Assembly: GCA_964587725.1 (NCBI GenBank)
Contig: CAZPLO010000001.1
Coordinates: 1-64,000 of the forward strand
Direction: 5' to 3'
Source of the DNA: an uncultured archaeon
GTDB lineage: Archaea > Altiarchaeota > Altiarchaeia > IMC4 > SCGC-AAA252-I15
DNA length: 64,000 bases
The number at the start of each line of letters is the position of its first letter. Positions within the stretch are counted from its first letter, which is position 1. The position numbers and the translations under genes are program-made. The notes under the pieces are model-generated. The model was not told the origin of the DNA. It searched no databases and saw nothing but the letters and a program-made list of their open reading frames with translations. This document shows, in pieces, positions 1 through 12,246 of this stretch.

Positions 1-37
1 AAACTATTTTGAATTTTTTTGAAATAATTGATATTTT

Positions 38-121
38 CGCAGAGGTCGGGATTTGAACCCGAGCTCCCGAAGGAACAGGATTAGCAGTCCTGCGCGTTAA
101 ACCTGGCTCCGCCACCTCTGC
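38..121 (-). tRNA. tRNA-Ser(GCT)
   Basis: Minus strand GCAGAGG...CCTCTGC-G acceptor stem; anticodon arm CAGGA-CT-GCT-AA-TCCTG; long variable arm; GGTTCAAATCC T-loop. Confidence 0.95.
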
Positions 122-127
122 ATTTGA

Positions 128-298
128 TTACACTGGTTCGGCTTCGTCCACGAGCATGACGGGGATGCCGTCTTCCACCCGGTATCTGAGCCTGCATTTA
201 CTGCATATGAGGGACTCCCTGGGCTGTTTCTCGTACTCTAGGTCGCCCTTGCATTTTGGGCAGGCGAGCACCTCCAAGAGTTTGTCGTCTAAAGCCAT
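128..298 (-). CDS. trm112: Trm112 family methyltransferase activator (56 aa, absent from ORF track)
   Basis: Manual translation MALDDKLLEVLACPKCKGDL...LICSKCRLRYRVEDGIPVMLVDEA; LACPxCK and YxVxDGIPxML are Trm112 signatures. Confidence 0.92.
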   Translation of the reverse strand: MALDDKLLEVLACPKCKGDLEYEKQPRESLICSKCRLRYRVEDGIPVMLVDEAEPV

Positions 299-319
299 TT
301 TAGCCTTAAAGTTAGGGGT

Positions 320-1312
320 TTACTGGTTTATATCTTGTTTTGACGTCCACTGGCGCGGGTACGCATCCGGGTCCATCACCACCCGTTCCGGCTGCGCCGC
401 CTCCCCCTTCTTGGAGTCCATGATGTTTTGGGAGTCTGTGGAGGCTTTCGCCAGCCCCGCTAGTTCGCCGCGTAACGTGAACACCGCCGTCAACACACCC
501 TTTGTTATGTCGTCTGTGAGGCGGGCTACGCCGGGGTTGTTCAATGGGGCGCCGTGGCAGAATGCGCTGACCGCCGAATCCTTCACCCAGATTTTGGGTA
601 GGTGGTCGACTGCTGACTCCAGCGGCTGAACCAGCTTCCGAAGCCCCTGTTCGTCGCCTTTTCCGCGGTAGTCTTCAACTGCATCCCGGAGGTCGTGTAG
701 TGTGACTATGTTTTCTTCCGTGTAGGGGCCGGTGCGTATGCGGCGGAGCTCCTGCATGTGCGCACCCACACCCAGTATCAGTCCGACGTCGTGGCAGAGT
801 TTCCGTATGTATGTGCCGGCTTCACAGTCTACCGTGAAGAGCACGTAGTCGCCTTCCCGCTCCAGGTACTGTATGGAGTATATGCAGCGGGTTCGGAGCT
901 GCCTTTTCACCGCCGACTTCACCGGCGGCCGCTGGTATATCTCCCCCTGGAAGTAGCTTAGGGTTTTCTTCACCTGGCTGTTGCTGACGTCGCCGTGAAG
1001 TTTCATCAACGTGACATAGGTTTTCCCAGCCAGCAGGAGAGCCTGCAGTATTTTGGTGGCGTCCTCCAACGCTATGGGGAGTACGCCGGTGACTTTGGGG
1101 TCGAGTGTGCCGGAGTGCCCTGTTTTCTGGAAGTCGAACATCTGTTTGACCCACGCGCTCACCTGATGTGACGTCGGCCCCGATGGTTTGTCTATGTTGA
1201 CTACACCTTTCCGGATATGCTCTTCAATAGACCTTGTTTCAGGTGGGCTGCCGTATTCGAGGTTGCCTTCGTCTTCTGCCTTCACCAGAACTTCCGCTTT
1301 CAGAGAAACCAC
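320..1312 (-). CDS. cbf5: H/ACA RNA-guided pseudouridine synthase Cbf5
   Basis: IDKPSGPTSHQV, GHSGTLDPKVTGVL, AGTYIRKLCHD and C-terminal PUA domain. Confidence 0.97.
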   Translation of the reverse strand: MVSLKAEVLVKAEDEGNLEYGSPPETRSIEEHIRKGVVNIDKPSGPTSHQVSAWVKQMFDFQKTGHSGTLDPKVTGVLPIALEDATKILQALLLAGKTYVTLMKLHGDVSNSQVKKTLSYFQGEIYQRPPVKSAVKRQLRTRCIYSIQYLEREGDYVLFTVDCEAGTYIRKLCHDVGLILGVGAHMQELRRIRTGPYTEENIVTLHDLRDAVEDYRGKGDEQGLRKLVQPLESAVDHLPKIWVKDSAVSAFCHGAPLNNPGVARLTDDITKGVLTAVFTLRGELAGLAKASTDSQNIMDSKKGEAAQPERVVMDPDAYPRQWTSKQDINQ

Positions 1313-1317
1313 CCCCG

Positions 1318-1533
1318 CTAAGCTAGGCCTTGTTTAGCGAGTTCCTTGGGCACGTCCTTCCCCCCCACCGTCCACGGCGTGGGCTCCAGGTGGCTGCCGG
1401 ACACAGTCTTCTTCCGCGCGGTAACGCCTTCGACGGTGTACTGGCCGTCCTTAATCCCTGTTATGACGCAGAACTCGCCCGCATCCCGGCCCCTCGTCTT
1501 ACGGCAGACACTGCCCTTGTCCAATAAAGCCAT
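1318..1533 (-). CDS. rpl14e: 50S ribosomal protein L14e
   Basis: MALLDKGSVCRKTRGRDAG..CVI...HLEP; usual position upstream of cbf5; start reassigned to ATG at 1533. Confidence 0.88.
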   Translation of the reverse strand: MALLDKGSVCRKTRGRDAGEFCVITGIKDGQYTVEGVTARKKTVSGSHLEPTPWTVGGKDVPKELAKQGLA

Positions 1534-1639
1534 CTCGTGCACAACACTTAGGAAAAACAGGTATATAAGGGGTGTTTCGGCGCGTTCCGAAGTAAAACCC
1601 CGTGGTTTTTTATAGGAGCCGCTTAAGTGTGTATTTGAG

Positions 1640-3133
1640 GTGATTCCCATGGACGATAAAAACGTCATATTAGCTGGTGTGGCGGCGGTAGCCGTCGTAG
1701 TCATATTGTTATATGCTTTGGCGCCCCGTGACCTGGTGGGCGGCGACTGCGGGACAGTCAGCCCAGAAGGAAGGGATGAGTGCTGCGCACGCCAGAACAA
1801 GGACACACCCCACGCCATGTGCGTGGGCGAATGGAGGTACAGTGAGACAGGATGCAAGTATGTCTGCACGGAAGACATCGGCAGCTTCGAGGAATGCGTT
1901 GCCGCAGGTTACCCGGTGATGGAGAGTTACCCCCGGCAGTGCAGGACATCCGACGGACAAACGTTCGTGGAATACATTGGATTGGACGAGATAACATGTG
2001 AGGACGCGGGCGGGAACTGGAAACCCTGCTCCAACAAGTGCATGCTCATGAACCAGGGCCGCAGCGACATGGCATGCCCGGAAGTTTGCGAGCCACTGTG
2101 CGAGTGCGGGGGCGAAGCGGGTTTCACATGCCCCGAAGGCTACAGATGCGTCATGCCTGAAGGCGTTGCGGACGCCCTCGGATACTGCGAGAAACAGATA
2201 GGAGGCGACCGTGACAGACACGGCTGCCTCGTTGCCGCAGGCTACAGGTGGAACGGCAGCGTGGAAGCATGCATACGGGAGTGGGAGCTGGATGAAAGCC
2301 AGAGGCAGGCTGCCGCGTACGCGGTCGACTACCTCGGCTACGCCAACGGAACAACCGTCACCGGCGTCGAAGTCATGCGTTGCCCCGGCTGCTTCACAGT
2401 TCATGTGGAGCAGGGTAGTGAGAGATACAATGTGACGTTGGCGGGGTGGGACATTAAATCGTGCACGCCCCCCATCACGGGGCTGCCGGATTTAACCCCC
2501 GAAGAGTGCACTGACATGGGCGGAGAGCCCGTGAGCTCCGTCATAGACTCGACAGGCGACCCCTGCCGTGGGGGGAAGAAGCTGGGCAGGGTGAAAGGAT
2601 TCATCTCACCCCACCTCTGCTGCGAGGTAACTGGAGAAGCCGGCCTCACAGCGGTTGAGGCGTTGGAGGCCGCTAAACTGAGCGAATGCACCGCGGTCGG
2701 CGACCTGAGCGGCGTGGCGGCATACAACAACCACACCAAGATGTGGTGGATAAACCTTCAGCCTTATGAACCCAGGGGAGGGTGCAACCCCGCCTGCGTG
2801 GTCGACGACGGCACCATGGCCGCGGAGGTGAACTGGCGTTGCACGGGACTGACTCCGCCGCTTGAGGTAAGCTACGTCAGCACCGACCCGGAGGTATGCG
2901 ACACCATACGCTTCCTCTGCGTCGAGGGCACGCAGCCGTTCTTCAACGAGAGCGGGTGCGGGTGCGCCCCAGATGCGAGAACATATTGTCTGGAGGAGCA
3001 GCGTAACGTTCAGGCGTGCACGATGGAGTATCGGCCGGTGTGCGGGAGCAACGGCGTGACATACAGTAACCCCTGCATGGCCTGCACCAACCCGGAGGTA
3101 GGGTATTGGGTTGAGGGGGAGTGCCCGACATAA
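1640..3133 (+). CDS. Membrane-anchored Cys-rich multidomain surface protein with C-terminal Kazal-like domain
   Basis: N-terminal hydrophobic helix; modules SFEECVAAGYPVMESYPRQC and GGDRDRHGCLVAAGYRW; Kazal-like CTMEYRPVCGSNGVTYSNPC. Confidence 0.8.
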   Translation: MIPMDDKNVILAGVAAVAVVVILLYALAPRDLVGGDCGTVSPEGRDECCARQNKDTPHAMCVGEWRYSETGCKYVCTEDIGSFEECVAAGYPVMESYPRQCRTSDGQTFVEYIGLDEITCEDAGGNWKPCSNKCMLMNQGRSDMACPEVCEPLCECGGEAGFTCPEGYRCVMPEGVADALGYCEKQIGGDRDRHGCLVAAGYRWNGSVEACIREWELDESQRQAAAYAVDYLGYANGTTVTGVEVMRCPGCFTVHVEQGSERYNVTLAGWDIKSCTPPITGLPDLTPEECTDMGGEPVSSVIDSTGDPCRGGKKLGRVKGFISPHLCCEVTGEAGLTAVEALEAAKLSECTAVGDLSGVAAYNNHTKMWWINLQPYEPRGGCNPACVVDDGTMAAEVNWRCTGLTPPLEVSYVSTDPEVCDTIRFLCVEGTQPFFNESGCGCAPDARTYCLEEQRNVQACTMEYRPVCGSNGVTYSNPCMACTNPEVGYWVEGECPT

Positions 3134-3210
3134 GGGCATCCCCGTTATTTTTTTTTGTTTTGACGTGGCTCACGCTGAACGGATGAAAAAATAGAAGTAG
3201 ATGTTTGTTT

Positions 3211-3405
3211 TTAGAGTACCTGTACCTTCTCTGCTTTGGGTCCGCGGTCGCCTTCGACTACTTCAAAGGACACGCGGTCGCCTTCACGGATGCGCTTGCC
3301 TTCTTCGACGCCGCTGCGGTGTACGAAGTAGTCTTGGCCGTCGTCTCCGTTTATGAACCCGAAGTTCTTGGATTCGTTGAAGAACTTGACTGTTCCCTCT
3401 ACCAT
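3211..3405 (-). CDS. Cold-shock domain protein
   Basis: GTVKFFNESKNFGFI (RNP1), DYFVHRS (RNP2), GPKA; strong SD AAGGAGGTGA upstream. Confidence 0.96.
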   Translation of the reverse strand: MVEGTVKFFNESKNFGFINGDDGQDYFVHRSGVEEGKRIREGDRVSFEVVEGDRGPKAEKVQVL

Positions 3406-3624
3406 ACTCTCACCTCCTTAAGTTGACTGCCTCCCGCGGGAAGATTAGATGATAGAGCAATGAGGGAACCGCAAAATGCAGACTCAATTGACACTATAAC
3501 ACACTAACTACCCCGTAGGTTGCACAATAATATACACTGGATGAGAATAAAAACCAATAAAAGGGGGTTTGGGCCTCTGTGAGGCCTGTTTTCAGCTGTA
3601 TAGTTCCTGGATGGCACATCTTCT

Positions 3625-3912
3625 TCAGTAGAACAGGTACACCAACCCCAGCGGGTACTCGTATGTTACTTCAAGAGTGTGCTGTACAAGCGCGAAAAAC
3701 ACGGACATGATAACAAGTGAGATGAACACACCCAATGCCACAACAATCAACGCCTTCACAGCCAGGTGTTTGGAATCTAACACGGTGTCGTGCAGGAAAC
3801 GATACCATATCAGGTACGCGAAAAAGGATGCTAGAGACCATAGGACAGCCAGTACTCCGACCCCCAACCCAAGTTCCACCCCGCTTATGCTCATCGAGAA
3901 CATCACATACAC
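3625..3912 (-). CDS. Small membrane protein, hypothetical
   Basis: Two to three hydrophobic segments; fills the intergenic gap; start uncertain. Confidence 0.55.
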   Translation of the reverse strand: MYVMFSMSISGVELGLGVGVLAVLWSLASFFAYLIWYRFLHDTVLDSKHLAVKALIVVALGVFISLVIMSVFFALVQHTLEVTYEYPLGLVYLFY

Positions 3913-3949
3913 CGAGAATATATTGGGCGAAGCTTAAAAAGAATAGAGT

Positions 3950-4192
3950 ATGGAGTATACCGTGTATATTCTGGAATGCCGTGACGGGACATTGTATACT
4001 GGATACACCAGCGACCTGCGGAGAAGGCTGCGGGAGCACAACCAGGGACTCGGAAGCAGGTACACGAGGGGTAGGACGCCGGTGAAGGTCGTGTACAGGG
4101 AGGAGTACTCCACTCAGAGGGCAGCTATGAGGCGTGAAGCCGAGTTAAAGGAGCTTTCGAGGTCTGGGAAGAAGAGGCTTTTTGGCGGGTGA
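3950..4192 (+). CDS. GIY-YIG nuclease family protein (UPF0213)
   Basis: VYILECRDGTLYTGYTSDLRRRLREHN.G.GSRYTRGR...AMRREAELK. Confidence 0.93.
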   Translation: MEYTVYILECRDGTLYTGYTSDLRRRLREHNQGLGSRYTRGRTPVKVVYREEYSTQRAAMRREAELKELSRSGKKRLFGG

Positions 4193-4277
4193 ATATTTAT
4201 TTATTATCGAGTATACTGTACTTATACTGTGTTTTTCCAGTGGTTGTTTTTGGCTGGGTTGCTCGTCTGGCTTCTAA

Positions 4278-5075
4278 GTGGATAAAATGGGTAAGATGGT
4301 CTTGGAGTTGGCTGTGAAGCCGCTGGCGCCCAAGCGCTTCGGCAGGCTGCGGTGGACCATCAACCCCCTCACCCTCGTGCTGACCTTCGGACTGGTCTTC
4401 TCCCTAGTCAACTACCTCGGCCCCGGGTTGATACAGGATGTGTTGGCCGAATCCGGAGTCCCAGACCACCTGGGTATGGCTGCAGCAGAACCATGCGAGC
4501 CGTCCGCACAGCCGGAGTTGAATTTGAGCCTTGCTGAGGACATTGAATGCAGCCTGGAGGACGGCGGCGGCGGCCGCGACTGGCTTGGGGAGTCCAAGGA
4601 GGCGTTCGATTATTTGAACACCGTCCGCGCGGAACATGGCAGGGCTGAGCTAGCTTGGGATGAGATATCGTATCTGCTGGCAGTCTACCGCTCCAAAGAC
4701 ATGAGCGTACGCGGGTACTTCGACCACGTCACACCCGAAGGCGAATGCGTCAAAGACTACAAAAATATGTTCGGCTTCGGCAGCCAATACAACGTAGCCG
4801 AAAACATCGGCGTCCTAGCCCACTACGACAACGGCATGCCGACCAAGACATCAACCCCGAATGATGCGGTGGAGGGGTGGCTGACCAGCCGAGGCCACAG
4901 ATACAACCTACTCCACCAAGACCACCAACGAGGCGCCATAGGCTGCTACAAAGCCGTCTGCACCTTCATCGGAGCCAACAACTTCCCCAGCGGCCTCGGC
5001 ACAGCCGACTGCATCACCGGAGAAGAAGCCCTCAGGTACTGGGCGGACGCGCCACCTAAGCCAGACGAAATATGA
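4278..5075 (+). CDS. Membrane-anchored CAP/SCP domain protein
   Basis: TM helix, then LNTVRAEHG, DMSVRGYFDHVTP, AENI, GWLTSRGHRYNLL. Confidence 0.88.
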   Translation: MDKMGKMVLELAVKPLAPKRFGRLRWTINPLTLVLTFGLVFSLVNYLGPGLIQDVLAESGVPDHLGMAAAEPCEPSAQPELNLSLAEDIECSLEDGGGGRDWLGESKEAFDYLNTVRAEHGRAELAWDEISYLLAVYRSKDMSVRGYFDHVTPEGECVKDYKNMFGFGSQYNVAENIGVLAHYDNGMPTKTSTPNDAVEGWLTSRGHRYNLLHQDHQRGAIGCYKAVCTFIGANNFPSGLGTADCITGEEALRYWADAPPKPDEI

Positions 5076-5078
5076 AAA

Positions 5079-5095
5079 TGGGCCTGAGGAGATTC
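5079..5095 (-). repeat. 17-bp direct copy of the tRNA(CAT) 3' end (att-like)
   Basis: TGGGCCTGAGGAGATTC is identical to 5235-5251. Confidence 0.9.
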
Positions 5096-5234
5096 CAAAT
5101 CAGAACCTAAGGTTCCGATACCTCCTACCGACCTTCGGTCGGAAGCTTCGCATACCAAAGCAGAATCATAATCACGCCCAGAGGGGCTGGAGCAACGCAG
5201 AACGCCCCTCCTTTGATCAACCTTTAGTAAAGGT

Positions 5235-5309
5235 TGGGCCTGAGGAGATTCGAACTCCCGACCACTCGATTATGAGTCGAGCGCTCTAACCAGACTGAGC
5301 TACAGGCCC
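5235..5309 (-). tRNA. tRNA with CAT anticodon, most likely tRNA-Ile2
   Basis: GGGCCTGTAGCTCAG...CTCGA-CT-CAT-AA-TCGAG...GTTCGAATC...CAGGCCCA; GGGCC acceptor stem resembles archaeal Ile tRNAs rather than initiator Met. Confidence 0.9.
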
Positions 5310-5393
5310 GTCTGTAGCGGTTGTTTATGTGTTCACATTGGGACTGGAGCGTCAGCGGAAGTCGCACCCGCGTGTGCACGGAGCGAGCCGTTC

Positions 5394-5405
5394 AGCTACA
5401 GGCCC
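5394..5405 (-). repeat. 12-bp direct copy of the tRNA(CAT) 5' end
   Basis: AGCTACAGGCCC is identical to 5298-5309. Confidence 0.75.
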
Positions 5406-5555
5406 TTCTATGTGTTTGTGTTTCTTCCCAGCAGGTCGCTGGTGCATGTTTGTGGTTTCGTATTCAGAGGGGCTAAGCGAGCTTGCGAGCGCACGCCCCT
5501 CCCTGGCGTGAACCTACAGTGTAGGTTCAGGGTGTATTATTTAGTGGTTGGTGTT

Positions 5556-6877
5556 TTATAAAGTGGTTTGTTGGGGGTATAGGTGTTTTCTGGCTGCTTT
5601 GTAGACGCGGGCTAGGGTGCGCATTTTCTGTTTGTCTGAGGGGCCGTCGTATATGGCGAGTTGTTCGTCTATGGCTGGGATGTCTTCTCCGGTTTCGATG
5701 TTTTGTAGGTTTAGGAAGGCGTGGGAGTACACATTTTTGGCGTCTAACCATTTCATGACCTCTTCTTCTCCTGCGGACTCTCCCCTTTTCATGACCTCCA
5801 ACTCCATGAAGTCGAGTAGGGTTTTGGGTTTGTTGCCGTCGTGTATGTCAAGTAGGTCGTCGAGTTTCTCCGGTGCCTGCTGGCCGAATATGCTAACGTC
5901 GGCGAGTGTTTCCCTCAGGGGTGGCAGCTGGTTCTCGGTGATGAATTCTGTGCCTCCTGGGCCGCCGGTTCCCGCCACTTTGTCGACGGCTTCCCCGAAT
6001 ATTATGCGGTCTCCTTCTTTTTTGAGTGTGTAGTCTCTGCGGGTGAAGTGTTTTTTCATGTATTCTTCCAGTGGTTTGCCGTGAATCCAGCCGAACGCCC
6101 CGTCTGCGTCGTGGGGAACGGGTGCCGGCCGGTCTTTCACGGGATGCCATTCAGTAACCTGGTATGTTCCGTCCGTCTGGCGTGAAGCTATCAGTATGTA
6201 GTCGTCGCCGCGGGCGCGCATGTATTTCACGTCTTCTGCCGAAGGCGTGGTGTCTCCCTGAGGGTGGGTGTGGTATATGATGGGCGGCAGTGGTTGTGAT
6301 TCGCCGTAGCTCACCTTCAACTGTATGGCGGGGGCTACGTCGCCGGTTTCGTCCAGTCCGTAGCCGGTTAGGGGAACCCTGACCCGGACGTGCTCGTTCA
6401 ACGTCACATGCCGTGGTTTCCCGAACAGGTCCTGGAAACCCCCCTGCCGTTCCACCCCCAGAGCCTCGAGCGCCTGAAGGGTTTTGGACACGAGCTTGTC
6501 CCTGAATTCCCTGCGTTTCATCCCAACCTCCAGCATATGCTCTCCCCCATCTCCGAGCACCGACTCGACTATGTTGCCTATCTGTTGCCGCACAGTCAAA
6601 CCCATCGGCGGCGTCTCATCTTCAGGGCCTAGTTTTTTTCGGTGCCGTCCGGTAGAACCAGTTTCGGCATCCTGTGGTCGAAGACTATCTTCCCCTGGGG
6701 CAGTAGGAAGTCTACGGTGTAGCTGTTGTCTTCCAGGCTTCCGCCAGCCTCCATGTTGTCGTACCAAGCCCGAAGCTCCTCCTGCGGCAGGTTTTTGAGG
6801 GTGTCCAGTTTCCATGGGCGGCCTATCAAGTGGGGTTCCGGTAGGGTCTCTAGTGGAACGTGTCGCCTGCGGTGCAT
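5556..6877 (-). CDS. JAB/MPN (JAMM motif) domain protein, reading frame split by a -1 shift near 6635
   Basis: YHTHPQGDTTPSAED = HxH-x7-S-x2-D; the upstream ORF 6629-6877 joins ORF 5556-6815 by -1 slip at A_AAA_AAC. Confidence 0.7.
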
Positions 6878-6912
6878 CGGTTAATATTAGGGGTGGACGG
6901 GGATAATAGTAT

Positions 6913-7212
6913 ATGGGCGACTGGGTTAGGCTGCGGGAGGGCGTGTGGCGGCGGCCGCTGGCTGTGAACGGTGAAAAAGGTGTTCAGGCGGATTTGATTA
7001 GGTTGGCGTCGGATTTCGTTGACCGGCCGCACGTCCACGACGGGTTCGAGTGGGTTTATGTGCTGGAGGGGTCGTTCACCGACCAGGCAGGTGAACATAA
7101 GGCCGGAGACTTCGTCGTCAACACAACAGAGGGCGTTCACCAGCCCAGGACGGGGCCGGACGGCTGCCTCCTCTTCATCGTCTGGACGGGGTCGGTGACG
7201 CCGGTAGAATGA
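6913..7212 (+). CDS. Cupin domain protein (ChrR/cupin_7-like)
   Basis: PHVHDGFEWVYVLEGSFTD...AGDFV...HQP...GCLLF. Confidence 0.88.
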   Translation: MGDWVRLREGVWRRPLAVNGEKGVQADLIRLASDFVDRPHVHDGFEWVYVLEGSFTDQAGEHKAGDFVVNTTEGVHQPRTGPDGCLLFIVWTGSVTPVE

Positions 7213-7592
7213 AGGGGATTACGTGGAAGCACGTCGCCTGGGACTTGATTGTGTTCGCGGCGGTGATAGTCAGCATCGCATCGGTGAGTATTGAAGTACT
7301 GTATGACCTGGATGAGGGTGAAACCATAATACTGCTTTTCATAGACGCGGTGGCGTTGGGGATATTCGCGGTGGATTTGTGGTTTCTCTGGCAGCATTAT
7401 ACGGGACCCTTCAAAGACTTCATATTCAGCAACTGGCTGGATTTCCTCAGCGCGATACCGGTGTTCAGGATAATCAGGGTGGCGCGGTTTGCGCGGCTGC
7501 TGAAGATGGCGCGACTCCGGAGACTGGGTAAACTCAAGAGGGTCAAGGAGGTTAAAGAAAAGGTAGGGTCTACTGGAAGTACGCCTGGGTGA
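7209..7592 (+). CDS. Stand-alone voltage-sensor-like (Ion_trans S1-S4) membrane protein
   Basis: S2 IFAVDL, S3 NWLDFLSAIP, S4 FRIIRVARFARLLKMARLRR; no pore helices. Confidence 0.8.
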   Translation: MKGITWKHVAWDLIVFAAVIVSIASVSIEVLYDLDEGETIILLFIDAVALGIFAVDLWFLWQHYTGPFKDFIFSNWLDFLSAIPVFRIIRVARFARLLKMARLRRLGKLKRVKEVKEKVGSTGSTPG

Positions 7593-9246
7593 CGTACTGG
7601 TCGACCATCCGGTGGGTGTTGAAGAACGAGCCGTTGAACGCTATGTTGTATGCCACCATACGCGTCCAACCCCGCCTGTCCTTATAGTATGTGGGGGCGA
7701 CCTTCGCCTCCAGTTTACTGTACAGGTCTCCGGCGTCCTTCTTATTGTCTGAATGGCCTTCAGACGGCGGGGGGCCGATACTCCACCCCGTCAGGTCTTC
7801 AACGTGGCCCTCCAGCCACCACCCGTCCAAGACGCTAAAGTTCAGTACGCCGTTGACGGCAGCCTTCATCCCCGACGTGCCGGAAGCCTCCTTCGGCCGC
7901 ATGGGCGTGTTCAGCCACACGTCCGCCCCCGAAACAAGCAGCTTCGCAGAGTACATGTCGTAGTTGTTCAGATATACGGTGGGGACGTCAACCTCCCGCA
8001 TGCTGTCCCACACCCGCTTAATCATCTTCTTCGCTTCTGTGTCGTGGGGGTGGGCTTTTCCGCCGTAGATTACCTGCAGTTTCATGGACCCTGCGATTTT
8101 TTCCAGCCTTTCCGGTTCCGAAAACAGCAGGTCGGCGCGCTTGTATGCCGCCACCCTCCTGGCGAACCCGATTGTGAGCACGTCCTCCTTGAATTCTAGG
8201 TGGTAGTTTTCGTTCACGAACTTGAGCAGTTGTTTCTTGGCTTTCTGGTGCGCCGACCACAGGTCGTCGTCTGGTATGCTTAGGCTGTGGCGCAGGGTGT
8301 AGGGGTCCCGACGCCACGACGGGATGTAGGAGTCGAACAACGCAGCCATGGAATCGCACACCCACGTGGCCGGGTGGATGCCATTGGTTATCGAATCCAC
8401 CCGGTACTGTGGATACATTTTCTGCGCCACCTCACGGTGTTTTTTGGCGACGCCGTTGACGTAGTTTGAGTGGTAGAGGGCGAGGTAGGTCATGTTCAAC
8501 AGTCCGTCGGATATTATTTTGTCGTGTTCCAGCGCCGAGGAATTGAAGTAGCCGCCCAGCACCTCCTCCACCAGGGAAACAGGGAATACGTCGTGGCCCG
8601 CGGGCACCGGCGTGTGGGTGGTGAACACGCACAGTTCCCGAACGCGTTCGAGGTCGTTTTGGTAGCGGTCCATCAGCTCCAGCGTCAGCATCGCCGAATG
8701 TCCCTCGTTCATGTGGTATTTCTCGAGGTTGTCGTGGTCGAGTATCTGCAGCATCCTAACCCCAGCTACCCCCAGAACAGCCTCCTGCTTCAGCCTGTAC
8801 TTGCCGTCGCCGCCGTACAAGTAGCTTGTGAGCTCACGGTCGGCCGGGTCGTTTACGTCCAAGTTGGTGTCCAAAAACAATACAGGCACCTTGAATCCGT
8901 CCAACCCGTCGACTTCATGCACCCACGCCTGAACCATGATGTCCCTGCCCTCCAGGCTAACGGACACCTTCTCCGACAGCAGATTCATGTGGTCGCGGTG
9001 GCTCCAGTTCACAGGCACCTCAACCTGGCTGCCGTGGTCGTCCAACGTCTGGTAGAAGTAGCCTTTCTCGTTCAACAACGTGACAGCTACGACTGGGACG
9101 CCCTTGTCCGCGAACGACTTGACGGTGTCGCCCGCCAACACGCCGAGGCCGCCGGAGTACGTGGGCATCTCCGGCTTCAACCCCACCTCCATGGTGAAGT
9201 ACGCGACCTTCCGGTCCTGCGGCCCGTAAACCAGGTAACTGTTCAT
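7570..9246 (-). CDS. glgP: Alpha-glucan phosphorylase
   Basis: YSGGLGVLAGD, HMNEGH, FTTHTPVPAGHD, ITNGIH, EASGTSGMKAAVNG. Confidence 0.96.
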   Translation of the reverse strand: MNSYLVYGPQDRKVAYFTMEVGLKPEMPTYSGGLGVLAGDTVKSFADKGVPVVAVTLLNEKGYFYQTLDDHGSQVEVPVNWSHRDHMNLLSEKVSVSLEGRDIMVQAWVHEVDGLDGFKVPVLFLDTNLDVNDPADRELTSYLYGGDGKYRLKQEAVLGVAGVRMLQILDHDNLEKYHMNEGHSAMLTLELMDRYQNDLERVRELCVFTTHTPVPAGHDVFPVSLVEEVLGGYFNSSALEHDKIISDGLLNMTYLALYHSNYVNGVAKKHREVAQKMYPQYRVDSITNGIHPATWVCDSMAALFDSYIPSWRRDPYTLRHSLSIPDDDLWSAHQKAKKQLLKFVNENYHLEFKEDVLTIGFARRVAAYKRADLLFSEPERLEKIAGSMKLQVIYGGKAHPHDTEAKKMIKRVWDSMREVDVPTVYLNNYDMYSAKLLVSGADVWLNTPMRPKEASGTSGMKAAVNGVLNFSVLDGWWLEGHVEDLTGWSIGPPPSEGHSDNKKDAGDLYSKLEAKVAPTYYKDRRGWTRMVAYNIAFNGSFFNTHRMVDQYVTQAYFQ

Positions 9247-9282
9247 TAAAACAAAATAGATTTCACCGGATAAATAGAGAGA

Positions 9283-9301
9283 CGCCTCCGGCAGGACTTG
9301 A
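9283..9301 (-). repeat. 19-bp direct copy of the tRNA-Asn 3' end (att-like)
   Basis: CGCCTCCGGCAGGACTTGA is identical to 9431-9449. Confidence 0.92.
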
Positions 9302-9430
9302 GCGGACGGCTGTGCTCCGTCCGCACGCAGGTGGGTCTCCCTTCGGTCGAGCCCACGGAATATGATAATGCATTCGTGCCGTCGATAGACGGCACAATCC
9401 GTTGCGGCGTGGACTGACGCAACGGTCCTT

Positions 9431-9503
9431 CGCCTCCGGCAGGACTTGAACCTGCGACCACTCGATTAACAGTCGAGCGCTCTACCAACTGAGCTACAGA
9501 GGC
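9431..9503 (-). tRNA. tRNA-Asn(GTT)
   Basis: GCCTCTGTAGCTCAGTTGGTAGAGCG-CTCGA-CT-GTT-AA-TCGAG...GGTTCAAGTCC...GGAGGCG. Confidence 0.96.
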
Positions 9504-9586
9504 ATGCTCGTGTTTGTCTACCTCTAGCCAGGGTCATCGAGGGCCGTTGCCCGAAGATGGCCCATTCGCCGGCCTTACTAAGGCCG

Positions 9587-9603
9587 CAACGAGCTAAGAG
9601 GCA
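9587..9603 (-). repeat. Degenerate copy of the tRNA-Asn 5' end
   Basis: CAAC-GAGCTA-AGAGGCA versus CAACTGAGCTACAGAGGCA at 9486-9504, with two 1-nt gaps. Confidence 0.65.
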
Positions 9604-9658
9604 GAAGTAGGTATATTTAAAGGGTGTTTTAATTAAAAAATCCTTCCCATATCATAAT

Positions 9659-10066
9659 ATGAGTGGGATAATAGACTTTGGTGAAAAAAGGAGAGAGTTT
9701 GAGCGGCCTCTGGGTGAAGGTGAGAGACACGCTTTAACCGCGGTGGGCGACAGCGTCCGGGGCTATCTGAGGGAGCCAGAGTACAGTAGCCTCCAGGGGA
9801 ACAAGATCCTCGGATGGTTTGTTTCTTGCTCTGAAACAGGTGCTGAGGTTAAAAAAATTGAGTTGGAGAGGAATGTCGCCGCATTGCAGCATGATGGAAA
9901 CAGGACTGCGAGGGAGGTGGTTGTGAAGTCCATCGACGACACCCTTGACGAGCTGGGCGCAGACCTTAAAAGGGATGAACGGAGTGAAGTCATCCCAGAC
10001 GCCCAGTTCCTAAACCATCTCAGGGATAGATTAGCTGAAGGCGGTAGGGCAGGGGATTTAAAGTAG
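9659..10066 (+). CDS. Hypothetical protein
   Basis: 135-aa ORF with an AT-rich promoter-like upstream region; no motif recognised. Confidence 0.65.
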   Translation: MSGIIDFGEKRREFERPLGEGERHALTAVGDSVRGYLREPEYSSLQGNKILGWFVSCSETGAEVKKIELERNVAALQHDGNRTAREVVVKSIDDTLDELGADLKRDERSEVIPDAQFLNHLRDRLAEGGRAGDLK

Positions 10067-10068
10067 GC

Positions 10069-10656
10069 CTACTTAGCCTTCCGCCCCTTCGCCCGCAGCG
10101 ACGGCCTCACCTTCTCTGCGCCCCTGCCTTTTCGCCTGAGTCCGCGGCCTTTCCTGCCAGCAGGTGTCTTCCCGCGGAACACGCGTTTCTTGTGTTGGGT
10201 GCTCATCCAACCCACTTTCTTGTCTTTTTTGATTGCGGGGTGGGCGGGGTCGACCATTATGACTTCGTACCAGTTGTGTTTCCCGTCCTCCATCACCCAG
10301 TAGGATGCGAGCACCTGGAGGTTGGTGAATTTCTTCTGCGCCCTTTCCTCTGCGACACGCTGTATGCTTTTCGCAGGGGTTATCTTTCGGACCGCCATGC
10401 CCGCCGGCTTTCTGCCGCGGCTGGGCCTGCTCTTACGGAGGCCGCCGGTGCGGACACGAACCCTAGCCATGATGAAACCCTGTTTGGCTCGGTACCCGTA
10501 CTGGCGGGCGCGGTCTATGCGTGTCGGCTTGTCTATGCGGACGACCGGGTCCTCGCGCCGCCACTGTTTCTTCCGCTCCACCAACGTGTCGCCCAACTCC
10601 GCCTTGAGCCGTTTACTGTCCCTGTACAATTCCTTAACGTATTTCCTGTAGCCCAT
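10069..10656 (-). CDS. rpl15e: 50S ribosomal protein L15e
   Basis: WRRE..VVRIDKPTRIDRAR..GYRAKQG, AEERA, SYWV.EDG..WYEVIMVDP; start reassigned to MGYRKY. Confidence 0.96.
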   Translation of the reverse strand: MGYRKYVKELYRDSKRLKAELGDTLVERKKQWRREDPVVRIDKPTRIDRARQYGYRAKQGFIMARVRVRTGGLRKSRPSRGRKPAGMAVRKITPAKSIQRVAEERAQKKFTNLQVLASYWVMEDGKHNWYEVIMVDPAHPAIKKDKKVGWMSTQHKKRVFRGKTPAGRKGRGLRRKGRGAEKVRPSLRAKGRKAK

Positions 10657-10736
10657 CGCATAAACACCTTTTCCCGCTCGGATTCGGGGCCTTCCGTGCC
10701 CCACAGCTCCGCCCCCGTTTGGGGGATTGGGTGGAG
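10657..10736 (-). promoter_or_regulatory. Candidate structured 5' leader of rpl15e
   Basis: Hairpins CCCCC-gttt-GGGGG (10712-10725) and GGGGC-7nt-GCCCC (10686-10702) between TATA-like sequence and start codon. Confidence 0.5.
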
Positions 10737-10798
10737 AATATATACTGCAGGGGGGTTTAAAAATGGTTTATTTTAAGGCACGCGTTTAATATAGTTGG

Positions 10799-11422
10799 AT
10801 GCCTTGGAGGAGGTTTTTTAAGTGGTTCAGGGGCATGCTGGGGAAGCGGAAGGCCATCCGGCTGGGACTGTATGGGCCGCCTAATTCTGGGAAGACAACC
10901 CTCGCCAACAAGATATCCGTGGACTGGACCGGGGAGCCGGTGGGGTCGGTGTCGGAGGTGCCGCACGAGACCCGGGTGGTGCAGAAGAAGGAACACATTG
11001 AGGTCATGAGCGACGGGAAAAAAATCGAGATGAACCTGTTGGACATGCCGGGGATAGCTACGAAGATAGACTTCGAGGAGTTCCTGGAGTTCGGTTTGAG
11101 CAAGAAGGACGCTCAGGAGAGGGCCAAGGAAGCAACAAAGGGTGTCATAGAGGCGATTAAGTGGCTGGAGGACGTGGACACCGCGTTGGTGGTGATGGAC
11201 AGCACCAAGGACCCGTACACGCAGGTTAACATCACCATAATAGGGAACTTGGAGGCCAGGGAGATACCGGTGATTATTGTCGCGAACAAGATTGATTTGG
11301 AGGATGCGGAGCCGGAGAACATCCGGGAGGCGTTCCCCCAGCACCCTGTGGTGGAGATATCCGGTTTGAAGGGAGACCACATAGAGGACTTGTACCGGAC
11401 CATAGCGAAGCATTCACGTTAA
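10799..11422 (+). CDS. oapA: Era-like GTP-binding protein OapA
   Basis: GPPNSGKTTLAN, PHETR, DMPG, DPYTQVN, ANKID; first gene of the conserved three-gene operon. Confidence 0.9.
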   Translation: MPWRRFFKWFRGMLGKRKAIRLGLYGPPNSGKTTLANKISVDWTGEPVGSVSEVPHETRVVQKKEHIEVMSDGKKIEMNLLDMPGIATKIDFEEFLEFGLSKKDAQERAKEATKGVIEAIKWLEDVDTALVVMDSTKDPYTQVNITIIGNLEAREIPVIIVANKIDLEDAEPENIREAFPQHPVVEISGLKGDHIEDLYRTIAKHSR

Positions 11423-11423
11423 A

Positions 11424-11813
11424 ATGGAGATTGAGATAGATTTCATCAGCGCGGCCGTGTTGGACGGGATGAGCAGGGAGGGTAAGATGAAGTACATCCT
11501 CGACCACGTGAAGGAGGACAAGATACTGGTGATAGAGGAGGGGATGTCCGCGGTGGAGGAGTCGGCGCTGATACAGGCGACCATGGAGGAGGTGAACCAG
11601 AAGTTCACGGGCATAGAAGTCTCCACCCTCCGCGAGAAAAACCTCGACAGCATCCGCGAGAAACTCATCCGGCTACTGGGCGGCCGCACCGGCGGCCTCA
11701 CCGTGATAGGCCCGTCGAAGCTGGTCAGGCAGGTGAAGAAGGATCCGCGGAGCATCACCATGACCGCCGGCGAAGAGGAAAAGAAGAAGAAAGGCCGTAA
11801 GAAGAAAAAGTAA
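11424..11813 (+). CDS. oapB: DUF2073 family protein OapB
   Basis: ILVIEEGM..EESALIQATM..FTGIEV...GLTVIGP. Confidence 0.88.
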   Translation: MEIEIDFISAAVLDGMSREGKMKYILDHVKEDKILVIEEGMSAVEESALIQATMEEVNQKFTGIEVSTLREKNLDSIREKLIRLLGGRTGGLTVIGPSKLVRQVKKDPRSITMTAGEEEKKKKGRKKKK

Positions 11814-11859
11814 CCTGGGGGATACTTCTGTTTTTTTAGCCGAATCCACTTAATATAGG

Positions 11860-12246
11860 TTGAGGATGCCCCATAAATGCGCCCGGTGCTCCAGGATATA
11901 CGAGGACAAGGCGCCCGAACTGATTGAAGGCTGCAGCTGCGGCAGCCGCGTCTTCCTGTACCTGAGACCGGACTACGCCGAAACCGAGGAGGAGACCATC
12001 AGGATCCTAGAGGAGAAGGAGATAACCGAAAGCGATTTGGAGTGGCTGGATGAGGAGTTCAAGGACCGTCTGAAGGGGGGGGAGAAGACCATCAGCCTCG
12101 ACATCGAAAACGTGCTGCGCGTCGGGGAGGGGAAGTTCCAGTTGGACCTCCGCAGCCTCATGCGCGGCGAACCCATCGTGATTAAGGCGTCTGAGGGCGT
12201 ATACTACATAGACATCCAGTACGGTATGAAACCTAAGAGGAAGTGA
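11860..12246 (+). CDS. oapC: Zn-ribbon protein DUF2072 / OapC
   Basis: MPHKCARC...GCSCGSRVFLY...G.FQLDL..L...EGVYYI. Confidence 0.88.
   Translation: MRMPHKCARCSRIYEDKAPELIEGCSCGSRVFLYLRPDYAETEEETIRILEEKEITESDLEWLDEEFKDRLKGGEKTISLDIENVLRVGEGKFQLDLRSLMRGEPIVIKASEGVYYIDIQYGMKPKRK

Follow-up and report, generated by a model that had tools for sequence, protein, structure and literature searches.

Small structured elements and displaced tRNA ends at tRNA genes of an altiarchaeal genome

Displaced ends and inserts at tRNA-Met and tRNA-Asn

The window analysed here is a 64,000-nucleotide stretch of an uncultured archaeon of the Altiarchaeota (GenBank assembly GCA_964587725.1, contig CAZPLO010000001.1, positions 1 to 64,000), and our subject is a pair of tRNA genes in it that are flanked by copies of their own ends and by short hairpin-rich inserts belonging to shared families of small structured elements. 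ARAGORN predicts three tRNA genes in total in the window. Two of them, tRNA-Met(CAT) (5235..5309, minus strand; 73.6 bits with the Rfam tRNA model) and tRNA-Asn(GTT) (9430..9504, minus strand; 76.1 bits), are intact and intron-less, the tRNA-Met gene being the inner, functional gene of its locus. The outer 3'-end copy of tRNA-Met, which runs from the T-loop to the discriminator base, lies at 5079..5101 (minus strand) with an offset of 156; 17 nt of it are exact (5079-5095), 21 of 23 nt match overall (91%), and TTTT follows directly. The outer upstream copy (5394..5411, minus strand) comprises tRNA positions 1-12, reproduced exactly (5394-5405, offset 96), and about 6 leader bases, with 16 of 18 nt matching. 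The outer 3'-end copy of tRNA-Asn, likewise from the T-loop to the discriminator, is exact over 19 nt (9283..9301, minus strand, offset 148). By reading, a decayed 13-nt copy of the tRNA-Asn 5' end is recognised at about 9591..9603 (minus strand, offset about 100), with GAGCTAAGAGGCA against GAGCTACAGAGGCA in the tRNA, one base having been lost; it contains no exact match of 9 nt or longer, and a TATA-like tttaaata stands about 10 nt farther upstream. All four copies, and the start of both 3' copies in the T-loop, had been described in a first-pass annotation of this DNA, and their lengths and offsets agree with that description.

Each of the three exact end-copy words occurs twice in the window and was found 0 times in 100 dinucleotide-preserving shuffles. 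The arrangement of both loci is reproduced in independently assembled contigs from four DNA runs of one study, which may itself have supplied this DNA, and two independent contigs of 30,786 nt cover positions 4800-9800 entirely, with 4 base differences and no indels. The tRNA-end copies at tRNA-Met and tRNA-Asn are neither chance matches nor an assembly artefact; the latter, which the first-pass annotation had allowed for, is excluded by the independent contigs. Apparent joints in the run contigs (5263 to 9477, and others) proved to be tRNAs of other organisms.

Four inserts separate the copies from the two genes. The one upstream of tRNA-Met (about 78 nt, 5316..5393, minus strand) opens with a 24-nt motif (5370-5393) that exactly matches the GNACGG family of elements treated below, and continues with a second hairpin, GGGTGCGACTTCCGCTGACGCTCCAGTCCC, and an A/C-rich tail. 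This second hairpin is also found in another locus of the comparison (L058) and on contig C7 of this genome. The sequence CAGTCCC in the tRNA-Met leader was considered as a mimic of the acceptor 3' strand and rejected, as it belongs to the conserved second hairpin (L058). Beyond the outer 5' copy, further leader modules occupy 5412..5530 (minus strand), with a GCACCAGC..GCTGGGAAG hairpin, a GAGGGGC..GCCCCTC hairpin (5467-5501), and a palindrome (5509-5529); an inverted repeat (I3) was detected in this stretch. The modules recur upstream of tRNA-Pro and tRNA-Arg(TCT), and a TATA-like ctttataaaa can be read ahead of them at about 5555-5564.

The insert downstream of tRNA-Met (133 nt, 5102..5234, minus strand) is composite and contains a module made of an ACC hairpin and GGTTGATCAAAGGA, a GAGGGGC hairpin and, adjoining the outer copy, a terminal ..GGAGGTATCGGAACCTTAGGTTCTGA module. 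On the tRNA-sense strand it folds with -51.8 kcal/mol (z -2.88 against shuffles). Its terminal module, ..GGAGGTATCGGAACC..GGTTCTGA, forms a repeat family in relatives according to BLAST, where target repeats of 21-46 nt, with trailer bases among them, enclose it at tRNA-Pro (L118) and at another tRNA (L122). A 31-nt unit corresponding to the terminal module of this element type, GAGGGAGGTATCGGAACCGTAGGTTCTGATT, is present in at least 6 tandem copies downstream of a tRNA-Gln in a further genome (L121, G017:C29:4650-5550). The ACC hairpin (ACCTTT..AAAGGT, then TGATCAAAGGA; window 5220-5234) is found directly after the discriminator of many tRNAs, and also in leaders and in one intron; since it lies inside the duplicated target in L122, it may be a native trailer feature rather than a part of the element.

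Downstream of tRNA-Asn, a 128-nt insert (9302..9429) is oriented on the plus strand, opposite to the tRNA, and begins directly after the repeat with GCGGACGGCTGTGCTCCGTCCGCACGC, followed by three more hairpins. Compared by eye with alignment A1, GCGGACGGCTGTGCTCCGTCCGCACGC appears to be the family's terminal hairpin in a variant form whose loop has 7 nt. The upstream insert (86 nt, 9505..9590, minus strand) comprises a hairpin GCGGCCTTAGTAAGGCCGGC, a second hairpin GGGCCATCTTCG..CTCGATGACCC of the ATCTTCG..CTCGAT type, and an A/C-rich tail; the same type of second hairpin is present in L050, L053, L075, L082 and L084 and in the tRNA-Met leader of genome G002 (L003). The fold z-scores are -3.33 (plus strand) and -3.66 (minus strand) for the downstream insert, and -0.64 (sense) and -2.70 (antisense) for the upstream one. 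The two downstream inserts thus fold far better than shuffles (z -2.9 to -3.7), and the insert upstream of tRNA-Met does not. The family assignment of the two tRNA-Asn inserts and of the downstream tRNA-Met insert was made by reading and BLAST rather than with a scored model. Stretches of the tRNA-Met spacers recur at 93-100% identity in other genera, and the same modules are found at other tRNA genes of this genome. The spacers are rich in hairpins, as first noted, and are members of shared families, so that the difference between the two loci that had been noted with them is not a simple one.

tRNA-end copies across the genome and in relatives

The genome that holds the window (1.56 Mb, 48 contigs, 92% complete; its contigs are written C1, C2 and so on) and a second genome of the same genus were scanned, up to 400 nt from each tRNA gene, for exact matches of at least 9 nt to the gene's 5' end (on the upstream side) or 3' end (on the downstream side). 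Such copies, one or more per gene, accompany 14 of the 21 tRNA genes of this genome, at offsets of 95-150 upstream for 5' ends and 83-211 downstream for 3' ends. Exact copies on both sides are found at only 4 of these 14 genes, tRNA-Asn with its decayed copy being a fifth case, and repeats of 5' ends are as common as those of 3' ends. Two of the seven genes that have no copy have a flank cut by a contig end. In the same-genus genome, 10 of 29 predicted tRNAs bear end copies. Among tRNA-Met orthologues from other genera and families, copies accompany 7 of 11, and the remaining four are plain (L007, L009, L011, L012). The first-pass annotation had proposed such a scan, and the pattern is present in all three sets.

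The repeats are not confined to tRNA sequence. They extend over about 20 leader bases at tRNA-Gly(GCC), 34 leader bases at the tRNA on contig C22 and, on the trailer side, 7 bases in L118 and 27 in L122. By reading, TATA-like boxes stand ahead of outer 5' copies and T-runs behind outer 3' copies. Repeats of tRNA ends on the kilobase scale were also looked for, and gave no clear pattern.

Four loci of this genome have an interleaved organisation: tRNA-Asp (C1:103955-104240), tRNA-Arg(TCT) (C1:253148-253420), tRNA-Phe (C10:12066-12260) and tRNA-Ser(TGA) (C9:39038-39310). Here the tRNA is followed by a short spacer, the 5' half of the T-arm, an insert of about 50 nt and the 3' end, such that the T-loop of the outer copy is split at 59/60. 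The inserts measure 47-56 nt and consist of two hairpins (CG-hairpin-CGCC-hairpin-GAGCG). An insert of the same two-hairpin type forms the anticodon-loop intron of a tRNA-Ile at C2:25521, a locus that was the sole addition from an nhmmer scan for half tRNAs. A search for hidden tRNAs with T-loop introns gave 321 mostly spurious matches and was dropped.

Even with introns allowed, about 28 tRNA genes are predicted genome-wide. Contigs C30, C31, C15 and C24 end in or beside tRNA genes, and it is therefore probable that tRNAs are hidden where the repeated modules interrupt the assembly. Stretches of exactly 100 N between identical 55-mers (C1:215153, C4:82229, C28:4648, C25:8226 and others) are scaffolding joins rather than biology. 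Two pairs of close direct repeats (17 nt with a period of 186, and 23 nt with a period of 197; C1:97436-98360) flank a match to RNase P RNA (97691-97888), which may reflect the same kind of insertion at another RNA gene.

The pseudoknot element, its targets and its relation to introns

The best-defined of the element families opens with a 25-nt motif, GNACGGCTNGCTCCGTNCACACGC+N, followed by a second hairpin of one of a few interchangeable types and often by an A/C-rich tail. The motif stands directly after the 5' copy at tRNA-Met, tRNA-Asp, tRNA-Gly(GCC) and the tRNA on C22, and a variant of it does so at tRNA-Gly(TCC). An exact-pattern scan over one genome per prokaryote species returned 49 matches to the 24-nt motif in 46 loci of named archaeal genomes, and this genome holds 6 more. 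The titles of the matching records name Altiarchaeota, Iainarchaeota, Nanoarchaeota, Woesearchaeota, Thermoplasmatota and others, with Altiarchaeota or Altiarchaeales in the majority. The exact motif is present in 13 of 49 genomes of the order, and the 12 besides this genome have 1 to 6 copies each.

A direct repeat of the flank abuts the element in 28 of the 55 occurrences, a count that includes one tandem-array effect and one repeat across an assembly gap. These repeats are 16 to 60 nt long (60 being the limit of the search; median 23) and enclose inserts of about 50 to 160 nt (median about 104). The repeated flanks differ from site to site and share no common core. Wherever a tRNA 5' fragment precedes the motif, the motif lies on the tRNA-sense strand, and the leader runs are thus A-rich rather than T-rich. 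By reading, the elements have no terminal inverted repeats (TIRs), the motif being at one end and a second hairpin or a variable A/C-rich tail at the other. The tails are A/C-rich in many copies and absent from the shortest.

Alignment of 44 copies of the motif gave 38 distinct rows, in which positions 2, 9 and 17 were free in the search pattern and position 25 lay outside it. Covariation is seen at both pairs formed by these positions: pair 2-17 is AU in 18 rows, CG in 18, GC in 1 and another combination in 1, and pair 9-25 is CG in 26, UG in 6, GC in 3, AU in 2 and another combination in 1. This is compatible with a fold of the motif as an H-type pseudoknot, in which a stem of 6 bp would be joined by a second helix of 3 bp, formed between three loop bases and the GCN behind ACAC, and in which the loops measure 2, 1 and 4 nt. 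Searches against Rfam of window positions 1-12000 (E up to 1) and of 6 element loci (E up to 5) gave only tRNA-type matches overlapping the elements. As no Rfam family matches it, the motif is a candidate new RNA motif.

The targets include protein-coding genes. In this genome an element at C7:25958 (locus C7:25880-26100, L088; also L090 and L091) lies between trpE and trpG, at the 3' end of trpE. Its target duplication, of 45 to 60 nt, comprises the last 45 nt or so of trpE and the start of trpG, which overlaps the trpE stop codon, and therefore both genes stay intact. We fetched 30 orthologous loci, of which 18 could be parsed: 3 are filled (this genome, the same-genus genome and G002), 14 are empty, and 1 is cut by a contig end. 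The filled sites contain the motif and a second copy that matches 30, 45 and 43 of 45 nt, and the empty sites have a single copy and no motif. The trpE/trpG site thus offers a direct comparison of filled with empty states. When the genome was scanned for close direct repeats, several further cases came to light, among them an element GTCGGAGTTTGCCGAC.. at the 5' end of hisF (C17:144-300) with a 38-nt repeat that includes the ATG. The tail of the hisF element places a GAGG about 9 nt ahead of the intact start codon.

The element is also found as a tRNA intron. In the tRNA-Arg(GCG) of a named Altiarchaeota record (L086), the element is an 80-nt canonical intron with a strict bulge-helix-bulge (BHB) motif, the splicing of which gives a correct tRNA. 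In this genome the element is contained in the 105-nt intron of tRNA-Arg(TCT) as well, and another of the modules makes up an intron of 86 nt in the tRNA-Met orthologue of the same-genus genome. A BHB finder, validated on the introns of tRNA-Asp and tRNA-Arg(TCT), detected no BHB that would give the exact product in the flanks of tRNA-Met and tRNA-Asn. We also considered a BHB formed by the hairpin and ACAC with the flank, and rejected it because the flanks do not have the GTGT that it needs.

One small element family thus takes three roles in related genomes, as a canonical spliced intron, as an insertion at a tRNA end that leaves tRNA fragments, and as an insertion at the end of a protein gene. 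It is tempting, though doubtful at this stage, to regard the pseudoknot-plus-hairpin elements as a gene-less mobile module, shared across phyla, through which introns enter archaeal tRNA genes and the genes are broken into fragments, with the 25-nt pseudoknot as the handle that is recognised. If so, insertion in the anticodon loop would give a BHB intron, and insertion close to the end of a gene would leave pieces of that gene displaced; the machinery that moves the module, which makes long target duplications, would be the host's own or one not yet known. How archaeal tRNA genes gain introns, split and scatter fragments is an old open question, which comparative and RNA work can now address with this material.

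Origin of the end copies

We consider it likely that the tRNA-end copies are long target duplications that arose when very small mobile elements, structured and non-coding, were inserted, and that they are neither integrase attachment (att) sites nor parts of a second acceptor stem. This reading is adopted because the same element, with target repeats, is also found at the ends of protein genes and across phyla. A very short element, some 50 to 160 nt in length and non-coding, would insert into the end of a tRNA gene and duplicate a long stretch of its target, by a staggered cut or an equivalent copy-in process, so that each tRNA-end copy would be one half of that duplication. The repeat would span from the insertion point, in the D-loop, the anticodon loop or the T-loop, to beyond the end of the gene, and a truncated 5' or 3' fragment would be displaced outward. 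Because the repeat reaches past the gene end, one intact gene copy would always remain; only insertions near gene ends would then be seen, because only those leave an intact gene, which would act as a selection filter. Elements in an anticodon loop with a BHB are ordinary spliced introns. With TATA-like boxes ahead of the outer 5' copies and T-runs behind the outer 3' copies, the whole unit probably yields a single long transcript that starts at the promoter outside the 5' copy and ends at the T-run outside the 3' copy. RNase P, the RNA of which is encoded in the genome, and tRNase Z would then release the inner tRNA. Two earlier proposals are thereby redefined. The tiny, non-autonomous elements targeting tRNA genes that the first-pass annotation had suggested are indeed small, mobile-looking and integrase-free, and the trpE and hisF targets remove their restriction to tRNA genes. 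The precursor of about 325 nt that it had offered as an alternative probably exists as a single transcript; the second acceptor stem attributed to it is not supported in view of the one-sided loci, of mismatches in the outer copies, and of the trpE and hisF sites, which have no acceptor stem.

Repeats running from the T-loop to the 3' end of a tRNA gene are the classic footprint of tRNA-targeting integrative elements. The 3'-end copies at tRNA-Met and tRNA-Asn match this footprint, and tandem units of insert and repeat at tRNA-Gly(GCC) and tRNA-Ser(GGA) resemble serial integration, so that the copies could be read as attL and attR scars of elements that carried a piece of tRNA and later lost nearly all of their body. 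We hold this to be very improbable. The first-pass annotation had noted that such duplications mark integrase att sites, though duplication of both ends is atypical; the repeats here copy whatever target was struck, over a variable 16 to 60 nt, with leader, trailer and protein-coding bases included and with no fixed core; those of 5' ends are no rarer than those of 3' ends, and the inserts are conserved small elements rather than random remnants. The whole genome has one Phage_integrase (tyrosine recombinase) match, on contig C27, and none lies near these loci. Around tRNA-Met and tRNA-Asn, the adjacent ORFs match CAP, JAB-like domain, carbohydrate phosphorylase or Kazal families, or nothing, and none is a recombinase, in agreement with the earlier remark that no integrase is nearby. 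Scarcely worth weighing is an origin in assembly, scaffolding or chance: the genome does have 100-N gaps between identical 55-mers, and two repeat-bearing tRNA loci (the C22 tRNA and C2:25521) contain such gaps, but the tRNA-Met and tRNA-Asn loci are gap-free and recur in the contigs of all four runs, the copy words are absent from shuffles, and the same architecture is found in many independently assembled genomes. Another possibility is that the units are functional long pre-tRNAs, in which leader and trailer modules and outer copies are built in and the outer copies pair with each other or with the modules to guide or protect processing, a broader version of the precursor proposed in the first-pass annotation. 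This would account for the promoter-like and terminator-like sequences that can be read around the outer copies, for the motif being on the tRNA-sense strand in every case behind a tRNA 5' fragment, for the RNA-like covariation of the pseudoknot, and for the pairing of downstream modules with the start of the outer 3' copy into T-arm-like hairpins, which by reading reaches a perfect 9 bp at tRNA-Val(TAC). At tRNA-Gly(GCC) and tRNA-Val(TAC), moreover, the two 5' copies can pair into a strict BHB, the cutting of which would give the exact tRNA. We nevertheless regard this as unlikely, since 5' and 3' copies are independent of each other, with exact copies on both sides in only 4 of 14 cases, outer copies contain mismatches and a deletion, orthologous tRNAs of relatives do without copies, and the same elements with the same kind of repeat occur at trpE and hisF. 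At tRNA-Met and tRNA-Asn there is no BHB for an exact product, and a single EndA gene, a 176-aa open frame, was found in this genome. A second acceptor stem or an outer-copy BHB as a general rule is ruled out by the BHB scan together with the count of one-sided loci.

The elements could also move by retroposition in the manner of SINEs (short interspersed nuclear elements), the element RNA being freed from tRNA trailers by tRNase Z and reverse-transcribed at a target nick. In favour of this are the unequal lengths of the target duplications, the precision of the structured end against a variable and often A/C-rich opposite end, covariation of RNA type with U-G pairs, the position in loops of the junctions within tRNAs, and five copies (L045, L056, L057, L069, L073) that start 0 to 3 nt past a tRNA 3' end. 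The tails, however, are not nested truncations of one sequence, and short copies have none; a mature tRNA was not the partner, because the duplicated stretch includes leader DNA. The reverse transcriptase family RVT_1 has no match in this genome and is found in only 1 of the 13 motif-bearing genomes of the order, these being incomplete metagenome-assembled genomes. Such a route thus seems improbable. We know of no archaeal SINE. The likeness to SINE and LINE (long interspersed nuclear element) retroposition would lie in target duplications of variable length, in a body structured like an RNA, in the association with tRNA genes and, for many copies, in A-rich tails; the elements differ from it in that no reverse-transcriptase partner was found.

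Several results do not sit easily with insertion and long target duplication as the origin of the copies. Among candidate enzymes, RVT_1, Y1_Tnp, TnpB and DDE_Tnp_1 gave no match in this 92% complete genome. Across the 49 genomes of the order, a reverse transcriptase is present in 6, one of them among the 13 that bear the motif, and Cas1 in 11, two of them motif-bearing; reverse transcriptase, Cas1 and the common transposase families therefore do not track the element. The motif has 0 matches in viral contigs. A simple detector finds no abutting repeat at 27 of the 55 occurrences, some of which lie directly at a tRNA end or within larger repeats. In all 11 loci read here, the 3' repeats end 0-3 nt past the discriminator, which is more regular than random staggered cuts would give; relatives show longer ones. 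The four interleaved loci are not produced by a single insertion with target duplication. At trpE, the three filled genomes share the same hairpin junction and differ in second hairpin, tail and repeat length, which is not explained by one simple event. The evidence on the active strand conflicts: of 54 element cores, the second hairpins fold better on the complement of the motif strand in 38 and on the motif strand itself in 9, so that energy favours the complement, whereas the pseudoknot covariation with its U-G pairs favours the motif strand. Two of the loci cited above, the C22 tRNA and C2:25521, contain assembly gaps, because of which their repeat lengths are uncertain. Finally, the empty sites that the first-pass annotation had proposed to seek in sequencing data did not appear: no element-less allele that would point to recent mobility was seen in the Logan contigs of the four DNA runs. 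The one Cas1 gene of this genome lies beside a CRISPR array (C5:42722-46450) whose 30-nt repeat, GTTAGAAACAGACTAAAGTAGGATTGAAAT, recurs about every 66 nt.

Insertion by small non-coding elements, as favoured here, has its closest described counterpart in insertion with long target duplication, followed by the repeats of IS1634 and IS1549. In the study of Furuta, Abe and Kobayashi (2010, PMC2853133), the inserted units are bacterial restriction-modification units of kilobase size with repeats of 30 to more than 400 bp, and no archaeal case survived the screen. As in those insertions, the target duplication is long and variable, no transposase or integrase is adjacent, recognition is by comparison of filled with empty sites, and the repeats often overlap a gene 3' end or a tRNA gene; unlike those units, the elements described here are conserved, non-coding, structured, 50 to 160 nt long, archaeal, and present in many copies. 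A filled site that equals the empty site plus an insert and a second long copy of the target is what is observed at trpE/trpG, and plain tRNA-Met genes exist in some relatives. The direct repeats of IS1634 and IS1549 measure 8 to 514 bp, and no mechanistic model is proposed for them (De Palmenaer et al. 2008, PMC2266710). These target duplications are likewise variable and unusually large, but those insertion sequences are autonomous, with a DDE transposase and TIRs, whereas the present elements have no ORF and no TIR and the genome has no DDE_Tnp_1 match. Insertion with long target duplication is not known to have an explained mechanism, and a small, abundant element that performs it would be a good handle on that mechanism.

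The elements also resemble MITEs (miniature inverted-repeat transposable elements) in being small, non-coding, multi-copy and non-autonomous. In a prokaryotic MITE census (PMC11602168), the top archaeal densities are those of Ca. Altiarchaeum hamiconexum and of a Woesearchaeota genome, and our elements are present in both of these lineages. The MITEs of that census have TIRs and target duplications of 2 to 10 bp, unlike our elements with their dissimilar ends and duplications of 16 to 60 nt. Literature searches with the text of the motif and for Altiarchaeota tRNA introns, BHB, archaeal non-autonomous elements and long target duplications returned no description of the element, the pseudoknot or the long duplications; the supplementary sequences of PMC11602168 could hold some of them.

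A work on archaeal tRNA-gene disruption by Sugahara and colleagues from 2012 reportedly describes an element of 1.8 kb that carries a recombinase gene and lies at a single tRNA-Thr locus. That case would share with ours a copy of a tRNA fragment beside a tRNA gene, tied to a mobile element and to intron gain; the present elements differ from it in being about 100 nt long, gene-less, and located at most tRNA genes. In practical terms, most tRNA genes of these lineages lie in long structured units that probably break assemblies, and such units can mislead predictors of tRNAs and of att sites.

Among the other genes of the window, the ORFs at 1640-3133 and 4278-5075 have domains of two kinds, Kazal-type inhibitor and CAP (cysteine-rich secretory protein), both of which are unusual families for an archaeon.

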